Part shown: positions 23,006 to 32,410 of the stretch, in pieces
How positions within the stretch are numbered: the stretch's first letter is position 1
Layout of the letters: each line of letters starts with the position of its first letter
Source of the DNA: a phage
Direction: 5' to 3' (one strand)
DNA length: 64,000 bases
NCBI GenBank assembly: GCA_038314665.1
Contig: GCA_038314665.1_3677.1
The notes under the pieces: generated by a model
Seen by the model: the letters and a program-made list of their open reading frames with translations, nothing else
Databases searched by the model: none
Told to the model about the DNA's origin: nothing
Position numbers and translations under genes: made by a program

Positions 23006-24496
23006 GTGGCTAAGTATGGATTGACAGAGGCTGGTTTCGTTATACCAACCCTAAATGACCTAATCGTTGAAACTAAGCAAAGCCTGATCCGTGCTTTTGG
23101 CGAAAACTTCAACGTACAGAGTAACTCCGTTGCAGATAAGCTGACCACTATCTTCAACGAGCGAGAGTATCAACTTATTCTTATGGCAGCATCTGTATAC
23201 GCATCACAGACGCTGTATGGGGCAGAAGGTATTTACCTAGACGAACTTCTTGGAAGACGGGGTATTTACCGAAGAGGCCGTTCTAAATCATCAGGTACCT
23301 GCCAGTTGACGATCAACACAACTGTTCCGTACAATATGATTTACGATTCCAAAACTTATACGTTGGATAGTGGCAACTTTGTTCTTAGCAATGATGTGCA
23401 AGTAGCAGGGAATCTTATTGCTCACAGAATAAATGCTCCAGACCTAAGGATTGGTAAATACAACTTTCAAATTACCAACCAGACAGATGGAAGTATCAAA
23501 ACAAAAAGTCTGGTTTTAACAGATAAGGCTCTGGACTCTTCTGATCTGCCAAGCTTTTACGGAGAGATTAAGCAATTCATTGTCGATAATACAACTCTGT
23601 TGAACGACGATTTGATTCAGATCGATATGTTGACAGGAACGTTGTGGATAGGGTACAATTCGAATCTTGACCAAGTTGGACTTAATAGTAGGGTAGATTT
23701 CAGAGTATCCCCGATTGTAGGGGAAAGAACTATCACCCTAGATGTTATCGCTAACGAGGCTGGTGAGCTGTCAAGAGAGGCAGAAACCGTGACAACAATG
23801 TCACCTACTCCCAGTGGATTTATCAAGCTTACCAACCGAGAAAGATTCAATGAGGGAAGGGATGTTGAGAAAGACTCAGAGTACCGCTTAAGAGCTTCCA
23901 GCACAAAACAGTTAACATCTAAGGCTACCCGTCCTGCAATCCTTAGCGCTGTAAGCGAGGTGAAAGGTGTTGAGAAAGTGAGAGTGTTCTCTAACAATAC
24001 CGATAAAACTGATGCTAAAGGTATACCTCCTTACAAGTTCCAAGTGGTTGTGTTTGGTGGTGCAACAGAGGACATTTGCCAAGCACTTTACCAAACTATA
24101 GCCTGTACGAACAGGACTTATGGTAATATTTTCTACGATGTAACTACATCTGACGGTCAAACTGAAAGAATTTATTATTCCAAGGCAAATACCTACCGCC
24201 TGGATGTAAGAATTACCTACTCCGGTGCTGCGCTTTCCACAACCGAAAAAGATGCCATTGTAGAGGCTCTTTTGCAGGTTGTTAACGGACTGGATGTTGC
24301 AGATACGTTGTACAATATCCAATTGGTCGGTGCTGCATCTGCTGCTGTGTCGATAGGCAGATTTAATAGACTGGTAATTCAAGTTAAACCTGTAGGGGCT
24401 TCTGATGAAGCTTACACTGCAAACGATATTGTTGCAAACATGACCGAGGTGTTTGACCTCGATGAAAGTAATATAACTTTCCAACAAACTATTTAA
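23006..24496 (+). CDS. baseplate wedge protein (gpJ/gp6-like)
   Basis: 496 aa; N-terminal and central segments resemble baseplate J family proteins; GTG start with GGAGGA RBS. Confidence 0.55.
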   Translation: MAKYGLTEAGFVIPTLNDLIVETKQSLIRAFGENFNVQSNSVADKLTTIFNEREYQLILMAASVYASQTLYGAEGIYLDELLGRRGIYRRGRSKSSGTCQLTINTTVPYNMIYDSKTYTLDSGNFVLSNDVQVAGNLIAHRINAPDLRIGKYNFQITNQTDGSIKTKSLVLTDKALDSSDLPSFYGEIKQFIVDNTTLLNDDLIQIDMLTGTLWIGYNSNLDQVGLNSRVDFRVSPIVGERTITLDVIANEAGELSREAETVTTMSPTPSGFIKLTNRERFNEGRDVEKDSEYRLRASSTKQLTSKATRPAILSAVSEVKGVEKVRVFSNNTDKTDAKGIPPYKFQVVVFGGATEDICQALYQTIACTNRTYGNIFYDVTTSDGQTERIYYSKANTYRLDVRITYSGAALSTTEKDAIVEALLQVVNGLDVADTLYNIQLVGAASAAVSIGRFNRLVIQVKPVGASDEAYTANDIVANMTEVFDLDESNITFQQTI

Positions 24497-24507
24497 GGCG
24501 GCGAGAT

Positions 24508-25194
24508 ATGGCAGAGATTAAGTCGGATGTTAACCACATCCACACTCTGCCAGATTTTGTTCAGGGGGGTCTTGACTACCTGCCTGGAGATTTTCTGGCT
24601 GAGAAGGTTAATTTAGTCACATTCTTAACCGTGTACCTTAAAAGGTTGGAGGATGTTGATAAGATGCTGGTAGGTTTGGCTGAAGGAAGATTGCTTAACA
24701 ATGCCAGCGGAAGATACCTTGACGAAGTTGGTAATCAACTCGGTATTCTTAGGAATGGACTTTCAGATGCTGATTTTCGTGCCACACTAATTATTCAGCA
24801 GGCCGCAGCATCAAGGGGCGGGACTCGCGAAGATGTCATCTCCACCTTGCGACAATTGTTCGGAAGAGACAATTTCGATACGTGGAAAGGAGACAACTTC
24901 AGGTTTGACATAAATATTAGAAAAACTTGCTTTGACATATTGCAGTCTATTGATCAGATCTTAGACATGCTACCACTGCCTTGTCATTTGCGTCTTACAG
25001 AATCGCAAGGGCAAGCTTTTGGTTTTGAAGGTGACTCTACAGCTCTTGGCTTCGGATCAGTGTGGGAAGAAAGCCAATTCGGAGTTGGTGGGCTGGCTAC
25101 TTTGCTGTATGTTCCTGACGTAAGACCTGATTGGGACACCACAACCATTTATTGTGAAAGTATTACAGTAAACGCAACTAGACAGGAGGGTTAA
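24508..25194 (+). CDS. baseplate protein (tail protein I-like)
   Basis: 228-aa ORF directly after the J-like gene, the usual position of gpI-type wedge proteins. Confidence 0.4.
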   Translation: MAEIKSDVNHIHTLPDFVQGGLDYLPGDFLAEKVNLVTFLTVYLKRLEDVDKMLVGLAEGRLLNNASGRYLDEVGNQLGILRNGLSDADFRATLIIQQAAASRGGTREDVISTLRQLFGRDNFDTWKGDNFRFDINIRKTCFDILQSIDQILDMLPLPCHLRLTESQGQAFGFEGDSTALGFGSVWEESQFGVGGLATLLYVPDVRPDWDTTTIYCESITVNATRQEG

Positions 25195-27266
25195 TGGCAA
25201 CAGCTGTTTTTAAACCTTACCGTGATTACTCTACAATGGCTGCACGGTTTCATTACCGCACAGTTCAGGATACTGCCGTTCCTGGTAGGGATTATGATCA
25301 TGTTGAGGGCGATATAACTATCCCAGTTGGGGCAACCAGTATTGAGATCCCAGTGGAAATTGTTGACAAATTACCCAACAGGTTACCAAGAAGCTTCTTT
25401 ATGGAGTTTTCATCAAAATCCCAAGGGGTGATGATTGGGACACAAAGGGCGAAATGTACAATAGTTTCAGATGAGAATCTTGACAGGATATCTTGGGATA
25501 CTGTCGAGGAGAGAATGTTTCACCCAAGATACTGGGTTACAACCACCCAGCAGACTGAAAGTACCTGTATTGTTGCAGATGACAACTGTTGTATTAACCG
25601 TTTAGTGTCAAGAACATATGGAGGTATGGCTGGGTGCATTTGGGAAACAGTTGACAAGTATGACCATTTCGGTATTGGGTTTGATGATCACTATGAGATG
25701 AGAAACACCAAGCTTTGGTTCAGAATGTCAATAACCAATGCCAGCAACTTCTCCACTCCTGAAAAGATGATTATGACTGTAGACCTTGTTGATGGTACAA
25801 TCATCTATGTTCCTTTAGCTCAATATGCTGTCAGCATCTCAGAGGATAAGAATGTTGCAGAGATTCATATTGATTTCGAGGACTGCGTCGGGATGGATCA
25901 GAACAACAACATGATGGGTGTTGATCCTCGACAGGTGAGAAGAATTTTAATACCGCTCATGCCTAAAGACTGGGTAAGTAATAGCACAGACCCGAGAACG
26001 GAAAATGTAGAGTGTGAGTTGCGCCTAGATCTGCTTCAGCCAGACACGGGCTGGAAAATGATGCAACTTAACAATATTCAGGTTAAAGAGCACGACGTTG
26101 GGATCTGCACCGCATATGACGATATGTGGAACGTATCTCCTTTAAGGGTGTTGAACAATATCAAGCGTCTGGGCTATACCGGAACCATAAACCATTATGT
26201 TGGTATGAGTCATTATTATGACTACACATGGTCAGGAACCCAATGGTCTATAAACAGAACAGGAGCGCTAAACGCTGCAGCTTATAAATGGCATGATGAT
26301 TTTATGTACAATGCCAAACGACATAACTTCGACGTTATGCAGTCTGTAAGTTTTGAGCTTTACAGCGATGCCTGCCCGTTGGAATGGACCCAAAGAGACT
26401 GGAATGATAACTACGCTAAAACAGGATATACACCTTGTAGCTACCTCCTGTCTCCAACCATTGAAGAGGGTATGAATTTCCTTACTGCAGTATTTAAGAA
26501 TTTTGCATCAGCCGCTATGAGAAACAACCTGCCAGTGATTATGCAGGTTGGTGAACCGTGGTGGTGGTACAATACCGATACTCGCAGACCTTGCATTTAT
26601 GATTACCCTACAAAACAGGCGTTTTATGATGAGACAGGCGAGTATGCCTTAGATATTGGGACTATTGACGATCCTAAAACTGGCGGTGTTTACGACAAGT
26701 ATGTAGCATTTTGTCGTGGTAAGCTTGGCGCTCGTATTGCGGCTATTTCAAAGGCAATAAAGGCACACGCTGCATCAGCTCAGATGACAGCTCTGCTGTT
26801 TTTCCCAACCATTATGGAAACCGAGCTTACGCAAAAGCTGAACCTTGCTGACCAATATAAAAAAGAAGCAGGTACTCTTGATTTCTTCTGCACTGAGTGC
26901 TACGATTGGGTGATGCAGGGAGGTATTGAAAAGGCAAAAGAGTCTGTAAACATACCTATCGTTAAGTTAGGTTGGCAACCGTCTGAAATACAATACCTTG
27001 CAGGGTTCGTTCCTAGTAAAGAGCTTGCTCCGGTATATGGATACGACCCAACTAGGAATTACCAAGAATTTTTATGGAGATGTATTTGCGGAAACATGGC
27101 AACTATAGAGTATAGATACCCTGAGGTAAAACAGTATGTGTGGGCATACCCGCAAGTAATGTCTGACAGCATCACTGTTACCGCTAGAGATTCTACCGTG
27201 CTTCATATGGGGCAGGTTGCTCTGAAAGGGTATGTAGAAGATGTTGTCCCGCCAGACTTCTCATAA
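25194..27266 (+). CDS. large baseplate/tail-associated protein, possible enzymatic domain
   Basis: 690-aa ORF, start overlaps upstream stop; Trp-rich C-terminal half (GEPWWWY); no catalytic motif confirmed. Confidence 0.35.
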   Translation: MATAVFKPYRDYSTMAARFHYRTVQDTAVPGRDYDHVEGDITIPVGATSIEIPVEIVDKLPNRLPRSFFMEFSSKSQGVMIGTQRAKCTIVSDENLDRISWDTVEERMFHPRYWVTTTQQTESTCIVADDNCCINRLVSRTYGGMAGCIWETVDKYDHFGIGFDDHYEMRNTKLWFRMSITNASNFSTPEKMIMTVDLVDGTIIYVPLAQYAVSISEDKNVAEIHIDFEDCVGMDQNNNMMGVDPRQVRRILIPLMPKDWVSNSTDPRTENVECELRLDLLQPDTGWKMMQLNNIQVKEHDVGICTAYDDMWNVSPLRVLNNIKRLGYTGTINHYVGMSHYYDYTWSGTQWSINRTGALNAAAYKWHDDFMYNAKRHNFDVMQSVSFELYSDACPLEWTQRDWNDNYAKTGYTPCSYLLSPTIEEGMNFLTAVFKNFASAAMRNNLPVIMQVGEPWWWYNTDTRRPCIYDYPTKQAFYDETGEYALDIGTIDDPKTGGVYDKYVAFCRGKLGARIAAISKAIKAHAASAQMTALLFFPTIMETELTQKLNLADQYKKEAGTLDFFCTECYDWVMQGGIEKAKESVNIPIVKLGWQPSEIQYLAGFVPSKELAPVYGYDPTRNYQEFLWRCICGNMATIEYRYPEVKQYVWAYPQVMSDSITVTARDSTVLHMGQVALKGYVEDVVPPDFS

Positions 27267-27278
27267 TCAGGAGATAAA

Positions 27279-28319
27279 ATGTCAAAACCTAGTTTTCCAT
27301 TAGAGATTTGGGCAGAGGAGGATCAGGTTCTGCCTAACACCCACAGACAGAACAGGCTACGCCCGATTGATGATTTGTGGAGAAAAGGTTGGGATCTTGG
27401 TCAAAAGCCCTCATGTGAAGAACTTAACTATATTTTCAATATGCTCGGAACTTGGGCAAAATACATTGCTGACGAGCAGATCCCCGCTCAAGAAGGTCGT
27501 TATCTGGTACGTGATAATAACTTGAGTGATCTTTTGAACATCCCTGTTGCCCGTAGAAACCTTGGGATTATTACTAAGGAAGAGGCAGACGCCAGGTATG
27601 TAAAAGTTACAGGTGATACAATGACAGGCCCCTTGGGTTTGCAACGTATCAACTTTAAAGCTGCCGAGACAGATAAGGCTTGGATAGAGACAACTATTGG
27701 CCCAGATAAGACAACTCTCGACTTTGGGTTAAGTGATAATACCGGGTCGTTTGATGATGGTGGTACATCTACAGTAGATGCGTTCCGTTGGAGATTCCAG
27801 CCAACTCAGCCGGATATTAATCCAGAGTTCACTTTGATGTACCTTAACGCGATCACGGCTAACCGTGCGATGTTGAAAGTGGTAGGCAATGTTGAAGTTG
27901 TCGATAACATGAGGTGCAATAACCTTACTATCAGCAATACAGCAACATTCACCAACTGTAATGTGGCCAGTCAGTTGACGGCTGGGTCAGTATATGTTAA
28001 TGGTGGTGCAAGTTGTGACAGTATGGTTGTAAGAAGCCAGCACTGTGTTGTCGGTAACAGAAATGTGGTGCGCTCTGTGAATGGGGTGACGGCTAACGGT
28101 AACGGTGATGTAACAATCACTATCCCGCAGACAGGTGTGCAAGACATCAGAATCGGTGCAAGACTTGTTGACGGCGTTTCTGAATCTCCAATTCGCAACG
28201 GCTACGTTGTCACAGGTTGGCATTTCGGTGACAAAAAAGAGATGCGTGGTTCAACCTACTGGGCAGGACCTTTACAAAAACTTGTAAATGGTCAATGGAT
28301 CACTGTTAATTATGCATAG
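27279..28319 (+). CDS. tail fibre protein (copy 1 of a duplicated pair)
   Basis: 346 aa; fibre motifs LSDLLNIPVARRNLG and GDTMTGPLGLQRI; C-terminus QKLVNGQWITVNYA shared with the 29334 ORF. Confidence 0.6.
   Translation: MSKPSFPLEIWAEEDQVLPNTHRQNRLRPIDDLWRKGWDLGQKPSCEELNYIFNMLGTWAKYIADEQIPAQEGRYLVRDNNLSDLLNIPVARRNLGIITKEEADARYVKVTGDTMTGPLGLQRINFKAAETDKAWIETTIGPDKTTLDFGLSDNTGSFDDGGTSTVDAFRWRFQPTQPDINPEFTLMYLNAITANRAMLKVVGNVEVVDNMRCNNLTISNTATFTNCNVASQLTAGSVYVNGGASCDSMVVRSQHCVVGNRNVVRSVNGVTANGNGDVTITIPQTGVQDIRIGARLVDGVSESPIRNGYVVTGWHFGDKKEMRGSTYWAGPLQKLVNGQWITVNYA
28275..28304 (+). repeat. 30-nt direct repeat (copy 1), identical to 30333-30362
   Basis: caaaaacttgtaaatggtcaatggatcact read at both positions, at the 3' ends of the two paralogous fibre genes. 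Confidence 0.8.
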
Positions 28320-28333
28320 ATCGGAGGACTAGC

Positions 28334-28918
28334 ATGAAAATACTTCAAGAGTTTAAACTTTACCAACCGGGATCTGGCGAATACCTCCCCAACAAGGGAA
28401 CCAAGGAGCTGACCCCTCAAGAGGTTGAGGATTACACTGCATACACTGGGTATTTTTTACGTAATGATGATGGCGATTGGTATGTGCAGTCACGAACATT
28501 ACGACAAGAAAATCCTGGTTGTATCTTCCTACTTGTTGACGAGAAGGGAATTCTTAAGACATCTACAGAAGAACCTGATGCCCTATGGCCTGCTCCAGGT
28601 CTTCGTGTGGTTATCGCCAAAAAAGAAGAGGTACCAGAAAACATTATGCTTCACCACGACGCTTTGCGTTTAGTTGGTGATGAATTTGTCACAGACAATG
28701 AATTCTTTGTTCAACAGGCAGAGGGTGTCATAGAGACAGAACTTGCTTGGGCTACTGCTAGAATTGGTGCCTATCAAGACATGATTGACCTTGAATATGA
28801 TCTTACTGATGACCAGAAACGTAACATCAGAGATTTGAAAATGTACAGGGTAAAACTTCTTGAAATAGATACATCTAAAGCCCCTGACATTTTCTTCCCG
28901 GAGCGACCTACCCTCTAA
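28334..28918 (+). CDS. tail fibre assembly protein (Tfa-like chaperone)
   Basis: 194 aa; C-terminal RDLKMYRVKLLEIDTSKAPDIFFPERP resembles the conserved C-terminus of tail fibre assembly proteins; directly downstream of a fibre gene. Confidence 0.6.
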   Translation: MKILQEFKLYQPGSGEYLPNKGTKELTPQEVEDYTAYTGYFLRNDDGDWYVQSRTLRQENPGCIFLLVDEKGILKTSTEEPDALWPAPGLRVVIAKKEEVPENIMLHHDALRLVGDEFVTDNEFFVQQAEGVIETELAWATARIGAYQDMIDLEYDLTDDQKRNIRDLKMYRVKLLEIDTSKAPDIFFPERPTL

Positions 28919-28929
28919 GAGGAGGTGTT

Positions 28930-29244
28930 GTGGAGTTGGATTTGGCGGCATTGTACGGTATCTGCATGGGTACCGTTGTCCCGATCTGTGTATGGGCTTT
29001 CAACCAGTGGCACACCAAATGGAAAGGCATTTCCAAGAGGTTGGATGAACTGGAGAAAGACCTCATCTTAGTGAAAAACAGTATGGTTACAAAAGATAAA
29101 CTTGATTCTATTATCGAGACCCGGTTAAGCAAGCTAGAGGCCGATATTAACGACCTTAAGCAGGATGTTAGGACAGATGTCTCCGGCATCAGAGCTGATG
29201 TACAAAAGATTTTGCACATGCTTGTAGAGCATAGTAAAAGGTAA
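28930..29244 (+). CDS. small membrane protein with N-terminal TM helix and C-terminal coiled coil
   Basis: 104 aa; hydrophobic LAALYGICMGTVVPICVWAF followed by heptad-like charged region; GTG start with GAGGAGG RBS. Confidence 0.4.
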   Translation: MELDLAALYGICMGTVVPICVWAFNQWHTKWKGISKRLDELEKDLILVKNSMVTKDKLDSIIETRLSKLEADINDLKQDVRTDVSGIRADVQKILHMLVEHSKR

Positions 29245-29249
29245 ACAAA

Positions 29250-29285
29250 GGTCAGGACGGAAAGGACTCCGTTCTTGCATTTTGT
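29250..29285 (+). terminator. weak hairpin terminator candidate
   Basis: GGACGGA/TCCGTTC stem with one wobble followed by TTGCATTTTGTT. Confidence 0.3.
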
Positions 29286-29333
29286 TCACTAAAGTGTTAA
29301 AATAGTCCTAAGGAATTTTCTCAGGAGAACGTG

Positions 29334-30377
29334 ATGACTAAACCAGTTATCTCTCTTGATATTTGGGCCAATCAGGATGTTGTGCTTGAAAATACGGGAG
29401 AATTGAATAAGTCCCAACCAAAAAAAGAAGAGAGACTGAAAGGTTGGGATATGACACAAAGAGTGGCATGTGAAGTTGTTAACTTTGAACTTCACATGCT
29501 TTCTGCGTGGTTAAAGCATTTAACAGAAGATGTTGTCCCAGGATGGGATAATAGATTCTTAAGGGTCACTAATAATCTGGCAGACGTTCCAGACAAAGCT
29601 GCTGCACGTCAAGTTCTCAATGTATACTCGCCTGAAGAAATGGATGACCTTTATGTTGACAAGGCTGGAGACACAATGATCCAGACTCAAACTTTAGGTC
29701 TTCAAAGAATCGAGTTTGCATCCGCGTCAACAGACAATGCGGCGATATACACCACCATAACTTCAGACAAGACGATGATGGATTTCTGGATTATGGACAA
29801 CATCGGTGGTGCTGACGGCACAGACCTTGATGATCCCTCTCACCAAATAGACGGTTTCCGTTGGAGATTTCAACCTTCTGGTGGGCAGCCTGTGTTTTCA
29901 GCTATGAAGCTCAATGCTATAACTGCCAACCGTGCAAGACTGGCTATCCAAGGAAATCTTGAATGCAACGACGCAAAAAGTTCCTCTACAAATGCCAATG
30001 CAGCTACTATACCAAGAGCCACTGTTAATGGACAACAATCCTGTGGAAGCGCTCAAATAGGTGGAAGAGTTGATTGTAACGATGAAACCGTCAGGGGCCA
30101 ATATGCAACAGTTGGTGGAAGAAACGTGGTCCGCAGGGTAAATGGTAACAGCGCAGACGGTATTGGTAACCTTACTATCCCTATGCCCAGCAGAGGGGTT
30201 GATGATGTGAGGATAGCAAACCGTTTCAAAACCACCTACAGAGAGTCAAGAGTCTACCCTGGACATGTGATGTGCTCGGGTAACTACGCTTATAAACACC
30301 CTTATCAAGGTGATTACTGGACAGGTGCTATCCAAAAACTTGTAAATGGTCAATGGATCACTATATCTTATGCTTAA
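29334..30377 (+). CDS. tail fibre protein (copy 2 of the duplicated pair)
   Basis: Paralogue of 27279..28319 (shared GDTM..LGLQRI, FRWRFQP and C-terminal QKLVNGQWITISYA); ATG 29334 with AGGAGA RBS. Confidence 0.6.
   Translation: MTKPVISLDIWANQDVVLENTGELNKSQPKKEERLKGWDMTQRVACEVVNFELHMLSAWLKHLTEDVVPGWDNRFLRVTNNLADVPDKAAARQVLNVYSPEEMDDLYVDKAGDTMIQTQTLGLQRIEFASASTDNAAIYTTITSDKTMMDFWIMDNIGGADGTDLDDPSHQIDGFRWRFQPSGGQPVFSAMKLNAITANRARLAIQGNLECNDAKSSSTNANAATIPRATVNGQQSCGSAQIGGRVDCNDETVRGQYATVGGRNVVRRVNGNSADGIGNLTIPMPSRGVDDVRIANRFKTTYRESRVYPGHVMCSGNYAYKHPYQGDYWTGAIQKLVNGQWITISYA
30333..30362 (+). repeat. 30-nt direct repeat (copy 2), identical to 28275-28304
   Basis: Same 30-mer as copy 1, read directly. 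Confidence 0.8.
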
Positions 30378-30388
30378 AAAGAGGGTAA

Positions 30389-30655
30389 ATGAAACTAACT
30401 CAGTTTTTATGGGGACTGGTTGCGGCATCTGATGACCCTACGAAAGTGTCCCAATCTAAGCTATGGTCAAACATAGGTATGGCGGTGATGACTGGGGTGT
30501 TTATTCATATGGGGTATAATGATACGCTTCCTGAATGGTATGCGTGGATATATGCGCCTTCGGTAGCTTGCCCCCAGCTTATTAGCAAATTCATCTCGCT
30601 CCGGTGGGGTTGCCAGCACCCTGACCACGTTAAAAACGAAGAGCAAAAAGCTTAA
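30389..30655 (+). CDS. small putative membrane protein
   Basis: 88 aa with one hydrophobic segment (IGMAVMTGVFIHMGY); GAGGG RBS; sits between fibre genes. Confidence 0.35.
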   Translation: MKLTQFLWGLVAASDDPTKVSQSKLWSNIGMAVMTGVFIHMGYNDTLPEWYAWIYAPSVACPQLISKFISLRWGCQHPDHVKNEEQKA

Positions 30656-30664
30656 GGAGAAATC

Positions 30665-32410
30665 ATGGCGCAAGACATGACAAGCTTTGAGCAGGCGGTA
30701 GATCAAGTAATTGTTGATTCTGAACGTTTGCACTTGATTGTCAACGGTAACGCTGTGGATGAAGTTGTCGTAGAGGATGGGACCACCATCCCTACGGTAC
30801 GAAAAGCCATGCTTGACACCCTTTATTTTAAAACGCCACCAATCCCTTGGGCGTATGGTGCATCCACAACAGTTTTTAACCAGTTGTATGAGTTTAAAGG
30901 GGATACAGGCACTCAGTGGTGGTACGCTCCAGCAGCATCAAAATCTAACCCGGTTAGGATGCCAGCAGATCCTTCACAATCTCCGAACTGGAGATTATAT
31001 ACCGATTCTGCAGTAATGGCAAAATACTACGCAAAACTTAACAGTCCAAGGTTCGAAGGTGACCCGAGAGCACCTACACCTCCAATGGACGATAAGTCTG
31101 AGTCTATAGCAAACACAGAGTTTGTTGTTGACTATGTTGATAGTATATTTAAAGCCATGGAGGGGATGAAAGTTACTGTAGGATCTTTGGTGGTAAAAGG
31201 TCTTACAGAACTCGCTAACACCATAGTTGGTGGTACCCTTACCTTACATGGACCTGTTAATGGGGCAGATTCTACTGCACGCTTTAGGAATCTAATCCTT
31301 ACGGCAAATACTTCTACACTTACTTTTGCGTGGAGCGATCCTAAGCATGCAGACTGGAGGAGTACAGAGCTGCAACCTCATGAAGTGTCCACCCACAGGG
31401 TTATAGCCGACACTATAACTTCTGGGAAACCAGTGGCTAATAACAACGATGTACATTTTGATGGTCTTGGTAATAACTTTTTTGACTACGTGTACATTCG
31501 TGGTAATGCCATGAAGGCAGCAACCGAACCGACATTGCAGGTCGATGGGACCACCAGGGTTAAGAACCTTGAGGTGACAGGTACCGTTACAGGGATAACC
31601 TACTCTGTCGATGGCACCATGATCTACCCTAGCTATATCGAAAGCACGGGTGATGCATTGATAAATGGCGATTTGGAGGTTGGCGGGTCTGTAGTTATTC
31701 GAGGAACAGCCTCTATCCAAAATATAGCTCTGAATACTCTAAGAGTCAATGAGCGTGCAACTTTTGAAGGGGAAGGGCTTACAGCTAATAAAGGTACAAT
31801 TACCGAGCTGACAACCACCACTTTAACTGCAACAACTGCAAACTCTGAAAACTGCAACGTTACCAGAAACTTGCAGGTAAATGGAGATGTTAGTTTAAAC
31901 GCAGCAGGGACGGGCACCACCTACCTTCACAATCTTGAAATATCCGGCACAGTGACCGGATGGCTGCCAGACTTCTCTAATGTCAATTTTGTCTGTAATG
32001 GCATTAACTCCAGTGGTAAGATAACCACCTCTCAAGAAATTGAGGCTGGTAAAACCATCACTGCACCTACTTTCCACGCAGGGAAGGTAGATTTCGATTT
32101 AGAGGAGGTTGACGCGTCCAGTGGGACATGGACACCTAACGGGCAGGCCAGTATGTATGTTGTCCACGCGAAAGGGGATTTTACAATAGGGCAGTGGCCT
32201 GGGACATCAGCGGAAGATAAACCTTATCCATTCACTGCGGTTATCTATGTAATTCAGGATGCTGTAGGTCACAACGTGACTTTGCACGATAAGTATGCTA
32301 TCCTGTCGGCAACACCTGTTATTAACAACAAGGCTAACAGTGTTACCTTGCTGCAATTAACGTATTGTGGTGTTGGTGATATCGTAGATGTAGTAATTGC
32401 ACAACGTTAA
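30665..32410 (+). CDS. tail fibre protein (P2 gpH/Mu S-like N-terminal motif)
   Basis: 581 aa; N-terminal SPRFEGDPRAPTPPMDDKSESIANTEFV matches the conserved N-terminal motif of myovirus tail fibres. Confidence 0.6.
   Translation: MAQDMTSFEQAVDQVIVDSERLHLIVNGNAVDEVVVEDGTTIPTVRKAMLDTLYFKTPPIPWAYGASTTVFNQLYEFKGDTGTQWWYAPAASKSNPVRMPADPSQSPNWRLYTDSAVMAKYYAKLNSPRFEGDPRAPTPPMDDKSESIANTEFVVDYVDSIFKAMEGMKVTVGSLVVKGLTELANTIVGGTLTLHGPVNGADSTARFRNLILTANTSTLTFAWSDPKHADWRSTELQPHEVSTHRVIADTITSGKPVANNNDVHFDGLGNNFFDYVYIRGNAMKAATEPTLQVDGTTRVKNLEVTGTVTGITYSVDGTMIYPSYIESTGDALINGDLEVGGSVVIRGTASIQNIALNTLRVNERATFEGEGLTANKGTITELTTTTLTATTANSENCNVTRNLQVNGDVSLNAAGTGTTYLHNLEISGTVTGWLPDFSNVNFVCNGINSSGKITTSQEIEAGKTITAPTFHAGKVDFDLEEVDASSGTWTPNGQASMYVVHAKGDFTIGQWPGTSAEDKPYPFTAVIYVIQDAVGHNVTLHDKYAILSATPVINNKANSVTLLQLTYCGVGDIVDVVIAQR

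Follow-up and report, generated by a model that had tools for sequence, protein, structure and literature searches.

In the 64,000-nucleotide (nt) phage contig GCA_038314665.1_3677.1 (GenBank assembly GCA_038314665.1), hereafter referred to as the window, two related tail fibre genes lie in the same orientation and carry an identical 30-nt tract close to their stop codons. According to our analysis, the first of them, copy A (27279 to 28319; 346 amino acids, aa), was assigned from its open reading frame (ORF), from the annotation of phage rV5, where it corresponds to gp33, and from its match to phrog_4465. It is followed by the gene encoding the tail fibre assembly chaperone Tfa (28334 to 28918; 194 aa; rV5 gp32; Caudo_TAP, phrog_136), by the counterpart of rV5 gp31, and by the second fibre gene, copy B (29334 to 30377; rV5 gp30). 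All the features described here are encoded on the + strand. For copy B, public annotations choose the ATG at 29334, 7 nt after a GGAG, which gives a protein of 347 aa, while the GTG at 29331, which gives 348 aa, is less well spaced. The tract occupies positions 28275 to 28304 (codons 333 to 342 of A) and 30333 to 30362 (codons 334 to 343 of B), and encodes QKLVNGQWIT.

Positions 27000 to 31000 of the window share 97 to 99% DNA identity with 117 GenBank phage records, 112 of which cover the region nearly in full, and all of these records belong to rV5-like myoviruses of the genus Vequintavirus. The locus holds the short tail fibre genes of an rV5-like Escherichia coli phage of this genus: rV5 itself, in which gp33, gp32, and gp30 have been described (PMC3606486, PMC8594841), is 98% identical to it in DNA, with the same gene order and the same 30-nt tract. 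The gene assignment agrees between the rV5 and BASEL annotations, the latter naming A and B “short tail fiber protein” and gp32 “tail fiber chaperone.” The paralogy of the two fibres, the lone chaperone, the occurrence of both fibres in virions, and the idea of dual specificity are already published. Kropinski 2013 reported gp30 and gp33 to be 42.3% identical, with an HHpred resemblance to T4 gp12, detected gp30, gp32, and gp33 in virions, and proposed a dual specificity (PMC3606486); the idea of “two LPS chemotypes” (LPS, lipopolysaccharide) is likewise in print (PMC3606486, PMC8594841). Neither Kropinski 2013 nor Maffei 2021 mentions an identical 30-nt tract or a concerted evolution of the 3′ ends, and in the searchable literature we found no description of concerted evolution of fibre tips or of gene conversion with tail fibre paralogues; a 2026 receptor-prediction preprint is silent on these two fibres.

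The two fibre ORFs are true paralogues, as the initial annotation had proposed. Their proteins are identical at 152 of 352 positions (43%; BLASTP, E = 1e-93), their genes are 52% identical in DNA, and both proteins match phrog_4465, “tail fiber protein,” from end to end (E = 6e-171 for A and 9e-163 for B). Protein identity amounts to 39% over the N-terminal 115 residues and to 47% in the shaft, and reaches its minimum in the distal tip, at residues 291 to 332 (12/41), directly before the identical tract; the divergence that the initial annotation had located in the central domains is thus to be sought in the tip instead. At the other end of the proteins, residues 1 to 111 of the short tail fibre (STF) of phage phiTE (PDB 9cuy) match the N-termini of both A (E = 1.4e-19, over residues 1 to 108) and B (E = 3.6e-8). 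The tip of A (residues 286 to 343) matches residues 440 to 501 of Mu gpS (PDB 5yvq), with E = 1.9e-6 when the full protein is searched and 2.6e-4 with only the tip, and it also matches Mu S′ by sequence, while no sequence match to Mu gpS was obtained with the tip of B. A similarity of the B tip (window positions 30270 to 30362, residues ~313 to 343) to pneumococcal surface protein repeats (PDB 4cnl; E = 0.25) was taken as chance; the pattern common to the two is Y-x-x-x-W-Q-G-x-Y-(W/Y)...G-x-W-(I/V).

Structure prediction of A and B as monomers with AlphaFold2 gave models of low confidence (mean predicted local distance difference test, pLDDT, of 61 and 60, respectively; predicted template modelling score, pTM, of ~0.3), from which only the strand pattern of the tips and the match to the Mu fibre were used. 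The region of the terminal hairpin has the highest local confidence in these models, with strands at residues 327 to 336 and 339 to 342 in A, where the block has a pLDDT of ~87, and at residues 327 to 337 and 340 to 343 in B. For both low-confidence models, the Mu fibre 5yvq_A was the sole significant fold match found by Foldseek in the PDB (E = 3e-7 and 9e-7; TM-scores of ~0.2). On this basis, the 30-nt tract is predicted to encode the terminal β-hairpin of the fibre tip, a hairpin whose role we can only propose. The ten-residue motif is conserved as protein in Av-05, Seunavirus, Phapecoctavirus, Rosemountvirus, phiTE, Mu S, and Mu S′.

A and B are best read as two complete, separately translated fibre genes, probably of the Mu gpS type. 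In a neighbour-joining tree, A clusters with the STFs of other Vequintavirinae, which have a single copy, and B forms a separate clade. Judging from the sequences, A is the ortholog-like copy, the apparent counterpart of the single downward-pointing fibre in related phages, and B appears as a divergent additional copy whose N-terminal docking domain and shaft are distinct from those of A and conserved. The composition of B is normal, with a GC content of 0.439 against 0.451 for A and 0.444 for the window, and the possibility that it came from a foreign source was rejected. We also observed that the tip module of A (window positions 28140 to 28310, residues 287 to 344) is 58.6% identical in protein sequence to tail fibres from ~53-kilobase (kb) Rosemountvirus phages (JEP7, CF2, renfri, and others), in which a Tfa gene again comes next. 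The Mu-S-like tip together with its chaperone seems to behave as a module moving between unrelated phages.

The tract, CAAAAACTTGTAAATGGTCAATGGATCACT, is exactly identical at its two locations, as first annotated, and mismatches bound it on both sides. It lies within a 62-nt repeat of 84% identity, whereas the other repeats show 76 to 82% identity over 21 to 28 nt. A search of both strands of the window, with up to 3 mismatches allowed, gave no third copy, and a match of this kind was found in none of 100 shuffles. Within the tract, all of the nine identical degenerate residues are written with the same codon (9/9), compared with 44/133 (0.33) elsewhere in the A/B alignment, where the rate is close to the random expectation. 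A codon model based on codon frequencies in 37 long ORFs of the window gives a probability of 1.25e-4 that ten codons are identical given the same residues, and when the identical-codon labels are permuted, a run as long as that observed has P = 0.0025. For five of the nine degenerate codons, the phage uses another synonym more often. The 30-nt identity exceeds chance.

The exact 30-mer was found by megablast in 108 records, at 175 places; among the 117 GenBank genomes, 67 have both exact copies, 41 have one, and ~9 have none. In twelve sampled genomes, synonymous changes occur in either copy (AAT>AAC, CAA>CAG, AAA>AAG, ACT>ACC, and ATC>ATT), and an L>F change is present in the B tract of one sublineage. 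Single-copy relatives have the same protein motif written with other codons. The tract is thus not a fixed element.

More divergent lineages with two fibre copies were recovered via protein-cluster searches and contig look-ups; a scan of IMG/VR with protein A returned 5 loci only, all of them close relatives. The first such lineage comprises six contigs (L022 to L027) with the rV5 gene order, whose proteins are 88% (A) and 78% (B) identical to those of the window and whose synonymous sites are near saturation relative to it (identical codons, 0.42 and 0.39). Here the tract reads CAAAAACTGGTCAATGGTCAGTGGATCAC(G/T) in both paralogues, except that L023 and L025 retain CTT in copy A; the A and B tracts agree at 29/30 positions in four of the six contigs and at 28/30 in L023 and L025. 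Compared with the window, three synonymous changes (CTT>CTG, GTA>GTC, and CAA>CAG) are common to both paralogues, and independent parallel change to the same bases at all three sites is improbable (~0.005 by a rough estimate). Between the window and L026, the A and B tracts are more alike within each genome (30/30 and 29/30) than either is across lineages (26/30 for A against A and 27/30 for B against B).

The second lineage, here called clade II (contigs L020, L028, and L029), is more distant, with an A protein 73% identical to that of the window; no cultured phage of this clade came up when its A protein was searched against GenBank by tblastn. In clade II, copy B has an A-type sequence throughout its tip domain, which covaries with A genome by genome, as illustrated by RCGS and NKEE, which are present in both L029 copies. 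In L029, A and B match perfectly over 110 nt (contig positions 2785 to 2894 and 4880 to 4989), spanning codons 289 to 325, in genes that are elsewhere ~52% identical. In the tip of L029, 32 of 36 codons are identical (permutation P < 5e-6), and the DNA of its A and B tips is 90% identical, compared with 81% for A of L028 against A of L029. L028 and L020 carry partly decayed, older tip patches, with A/B DNA identities of 83% and 75%. The L029 match has the appearance of a clear and recent gene-conversion tract. When a neighbour-joining tree is built from the N-terminus and shaft only, A copies group with the single-copy fibres, B copies stand apart, and the internal branching is the same in both groups. 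Taken as sequence patterns, these data suggest that the gene bodies evolve as orthologues, while the 3′ tips are overwritten within genomes by patches that differ in age and in position (codons 333 to 342 in the window and L026, codons 289 to 325 in L029).

We think that the 30-nt identity is probably the footprint of occasional short-tract gene conversion between the fibre paralogues, and not a special switch. According to the mechanism we propose, no part of the fibre tips of this class would be under stronger constraint than the terminal hairpin P-L/I-Q-K-L-V-N-G-Q-W-I-T. Since such a motif cannot drift as protein, the DNA encoding it would diverge little and would remain as an island of similarity, a substrate for homologous exchange, and the recombination or replication machinery of the phage would occasionally overwrite a short patch of one paralogue with the sequence of the other. 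Candidate routes for the copying are a recombinase, single-strand annealing, and template switching.

Some observations weigh against this reading. Gene conversion is deduced from sequence patterns alone, and the permutation P value obtained within the window is modest. The stronger support comes from the metagenomic contigs of clade II and from phage contigs of public assemblies, one of them at 1.5x coverage. Moreover, in clade II the terminal motif itself is only 70 to 77% identical in DNA between A and B (73% in L029), and the island is therefore not universal. In two lineages, paralogue-specific residues flank the tract on both sides (PL...TVN in A and AI...TIS in B), which means that conversion tracts would have to be very short, or that longer ones would have to be selected against. 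Finally, the structural models are poor (mean pLDDT of ~60, pTM of 0.3), and the roles assigned to the hairpin and to the chaperone are proposals.

The chaperone deserves attention in this context. The ORF at 28334 to 28918 matches Pfam Caudo_TAP (E = 1.3e-11) and phrog_136 (E = 9e-36), and of the ORFs that follow A and B it is the only one with a match to Caudo_TAP or to the PHROG tail-fibre assembly families; the ORF downstream of B encodes the membrane protein gp29, not a chaperone. The initial annotation was therefore right in assigning a chaperone to the first fibre gene only. A tblastn search with Tfa found 244 places in 242 records, that is, one per genome, and one in the window, while the same search with the fibre found 545 places in 428 records, that is, ~117 records with two copies. 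As there is a single Tfa per genome and as the fibres and Tfa are all present in virions, we infer that gp32 folds both fibres. The N-terminal domains of A and B, which differ in every lineage (45/115 identical), may in turn dock at different baseplate sites.

The layout of related phages indicates how the second fibre gene may have come to its place. Both copies are present in ~117 GenBank genomes, and a single copy is found in Av-05 and Seunavirus. In the single-copy arrangement, seen in Av-05, in three Seunavirus genomes, and in one metagenomic contig, the STF gene is followed by Tfa, a 104-aa protein, a 157-aa polytopic membrane protein (PF26221), an 87- to 89-aa membrane protein, and a fibre gene. 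Vequintavirus retains homologous genes for the 104-aa and 88-aa proteins, and copy B stands in the slot of the 157-aa gene. Instead of the duplicated cassette initially annotated, then, the gene orders point to a duplication of the fibre gene alone, with B having apparently replaced a small membrane-protein gene. The slot, at positions 29245 to 30388 of the window, is occupied in single-copy relatives by the gene of the PF26221 family, Phage_phiTE_239 (4949 to 5422 in contig L014 and 5958 to 6431 in contig L030), which there completes a trio of genes for small membrane proteins within the tail-fibre cluster. A homologue of the 104-aa gp31 follows the Tfa gene in all the relatives examined (Av-05, Seunavirus, and the clade II contigs).

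A related idea, which we put forward tentatively and consider rather unlikely, is that the patchy homogenisation is not neutral. It may keep both fibres compatible at their C-terminal folding nucleus, either for the single Tfa gp32 or for the formation of mixed trimers, and the N-terminal docking difference would then put the fibres at two baseplate sites. The presence of one Tfa per genome, the occurrence of Tfa and both fibres in virions, the same tip on A and B in clade II, and N-termini that are consistently of the A or the B type are all consistent with it. If this were true, gene conversion would be a means of keeping a two-fibre, one-chaperone system functional.

The initial annotation saw in the tract a recombination site for swapping receptor-binding domains. 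This is correct insofar as the segment seems to mark intragenomic recombination, in the form of concerted evolution, but the geometry is wrong for a domain swap. Both repeats have the same orientation and are found on the distal side of the variable tip, and for this reason such a swap is not supported: a single crossover at the tract would delete 2,058 base pairs, comprising the chaperone gene, gp31, and nearly all of B, and no genome with this deletion is present among the ~117. Upstream of the tip, the window has no second tract of comparable identity. In favour of a site at which variants are made, within the phage or with other phages, one may recall that recombination between the 3′ regions of the paralogues demonstrably occurs and that the tip module of A is shared with the unrelated Rosemountvirus. 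Tetart et al. 1998 reportedly identified conserved motifs as exchange points in the distal tail-fibre and adhesin genes of T-even phages, and mosaic fibre genes are said to have been found in P2, Mu, P1, and lambda by Sandmeier 1994 and Haggard-Ljungquist et al. 1992. The likeness lies in short conserved segments that serve diverged fibre genes as homologous exchange points. However, in those phages the exchange takes place between phages and changes specificity, whereas here it would take place between paralogues in one genome and raise their likeness, and the tip conversions that we observe homogenise the tips instead of diversifying them. We found no outside donor of the B tip, the next best tblastn match being 44.6% identical. 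Furthermore, the members of the genus, being 97 to 99% identical all along, can recombine with one another without a special site, and their STF locus is without considerable allelic variation (PMC8594841). Altogether, we deem a dedicated swap site quite improbable.

A still less favoured explanation is that of a coincidence under constraint on the protein, in which an essential hairpin came to be written with the same codons in both genes through codon preference. The conservation of the motif as protein across many fibre tips speaks for it, several codons of the tract are common in the window phage, and AATGGTCAATGG also occurs in Av-05 and in the B genes of clade II. Against it stand the codon model and the permutation described above (1.25e-4 and 0.0025), together with the five of nine degenerate codons that are not the commonest synonym. 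The lineage L022 to L027, moreover, has a different codon set that is again common to both paralogues, and the perfect 110-nt patch of L029 would be left unexplained. We hold a coincidence to be very unlikely.

Less credible again, and to be regarded as highly improbable, is a functional nucleic-acid element present in two copies and selected as DNA or RNA, for example, as the target of a trans-acting factor or as a signal for the expression of the downstream gene. Both copies of the tract do lie 30 to 60 nt upstream of the start of the next gene, and their covariation in two lineages is what a shared trans-acting factor would also predict. However, the tract is polymorphic and relatives use other codons, which argues against a function at the level of the nucleotides: 41 GenBank records have one exact copy and ~9 have none, either copy accepts synonymous changes at many positions, and clade II lacks the identical tract, its A and B differing at 7 of 30 positions. 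In addition, the 64-kb window contains no third or antisense copy, the genes downstream of the two tracts are unrelated (Tfa and a membrane protein), and a promoter scan gave 8 sites where 8.0 were expected, hence no enrichment. An artefact of assembly, with a collapsed or duplicated repeat, can be set aside as having a negligible probability, given that the same arrangement recurs in ~117 independently sequenced genomes, including the Sanger-sequenced rV5, that the copies are 52% identical in DNA, and that both proteins have been detected in virions by mass spectrometry (PMC3606486).

Two known kinds of variation-generating system were also considered and rejected. An invertible tail-fibre switch such as Mu G or P1 C, operated by Gin or Cin, does not fit the locus, where the repeats are direct, no reverse-complement copy exists, and both genes are complete with their own starts; no recombinase domain was found in the nine neighbouring ORFs. 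A diversity-generating retroelement does not fit either, since the tract is 30 nt long and identical and the differences within the 62-nt repeat are not adenine specific; in this neighbourhood, the ORFs contain no reverse transcriptase domain.

Among characterised systems, the fibres appear to be of the same class as those of the Mu S/U system, with a Caudo_TAP chaperone gene directly downstream of A, and Mu S and S′ (PDB 5yvq and 8ju3) end in an RP(V/I)Q..INGTWYN hairpin motif, like the tip of A. However, Mu exposes one of two alternative C-termini through Gin inversion, each with its own chaperone, U or U′, whereas the window has two complete genes in direct orientation, both with products in the virion, a single chaperone gene, no inverted repeat spanning the locus, and no adjoining recombinase. 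Single-copy homologues are represented by phi92 gp147 and the phiTE STF (PDB 9cuy), both downward-pointing and docked to the wedge by their N-terminus. The former is the “fiber III” of phi92; it is fixed beneath the wedge protein and has been suggested to bring about irreversible binding (PMC13450770), and LL12 gp29 can be aligned with it (PMC7229145). The N-terminal ~90 residues (3 to 92) of the latter have been modelled bound to wedge 1 (PMC11972413), but the phiTE fibre differs in having a long coiled coil and Ig-like distal domains and not a compact Mu-S-like tip. T4 gp12, a fibre attached to the baseplate that is believed to bind the LPS core and set off contraction, can be regarded as functionally analogous; it differs in being single copy and in relying on the chaperone gp57A and not on Tfa, and no T4 gp12 chain was retrieved in the PDB sequence search at E ≤ 1.

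The remaining features of the neighbourhood are as follows. Upstream of A, positions 23006 to 27266 encode the Baseplate_J-like wedge protein gp36, a 228-aa baseplate protein (gp35), and a 690-aa fibre protein (gp34) with a non-contractile tail sheath protein (NCTSP) domain and a TIM barrel. In the 690-aa protein (25194 to 27266), a Calx-beta-like N-terminus precedes the “non-contractile tail sheath protein” N-domain and the TIM barrel (PF23844 and PF23845); the gene is present in Vequintavirus and Av-05 and is absent from this position in Seunavirus. Between Tfa and B, gp31 (28930 to 29244; 104 aa; phrog_5345) consists of a hydrophobic N-terminal segment followed by a coiled-coil-like region. 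In the 86-nt gap that separates it from copy B, a consensus scan detected a terminator-like hairpin of 8 pairs followed by a T-rich run (29254 to 29275), and from this hairpin B and the genes downstream may form a separate transcription unit. Downstream of B lie the membrane protein gp29 (30389 to 30655; 88 aa; phrog_1322, “membrane protein”; no Pfam match) and the 581-aa tail fibre protein gp28 (30665 to 32410), on whose homologues PF26208 and PF26209 are recorded. Homologues of gp29 have 87 to 89 aa in Av-05 and Seunavirus and 117 to 126 aa in clade II (L020, 3265 to 3618; L028, 5076 to 5432; L029, 5067 to 5447), where they carry a C-terminal extension of 30 to 40 residues rich in (R/D)YS(D/E) repeats, which the 88-aa protein of the window lacks. 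We also note that 16 to 21 GenBank records (MG0656xx) named “Campylobacter phage” are ~98% identical to the window across the locus, at least one of them being flagged UNVERIFIED; these are probably mislabelled or contaminating coliphages.

As regards the receptors, all the tested members of Vequintavirus need the LPS core glucose added by WaaG, and the short-tail-fibre genes were reported to be without considerable allelic variation in the genus (PMC8594841), while LL12 requires the LPS core up to glucose I (PMC7229145). The dual specificity suggested by the initial annotation is plausible for the clade of the window, because the tips are identical at only 12 of 41 residues and that of B lacks a sequence match to Mu S, and A and B may bind different LPS-core structures there. 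In clade II, both fibres carry the same tip and the duplication is nevertheless retained, so that the recognition of two receptors cannot be its only role. The concerted evolution of the tips would represent a modest new detail of these phages and not a new kind of system, with the tract of the window as an ordinary conversion footprint. The boundaries of the patches (codons ~289 to 325 and 333 to 342) would mark junctions that tolerate the exchange of tips, which may be useful for tip engineering in therapeutic phages. For the biology of this group, the two fibres would keep separate docking and shaft identities while their distal tips are repeatedly overwritten between the copies.

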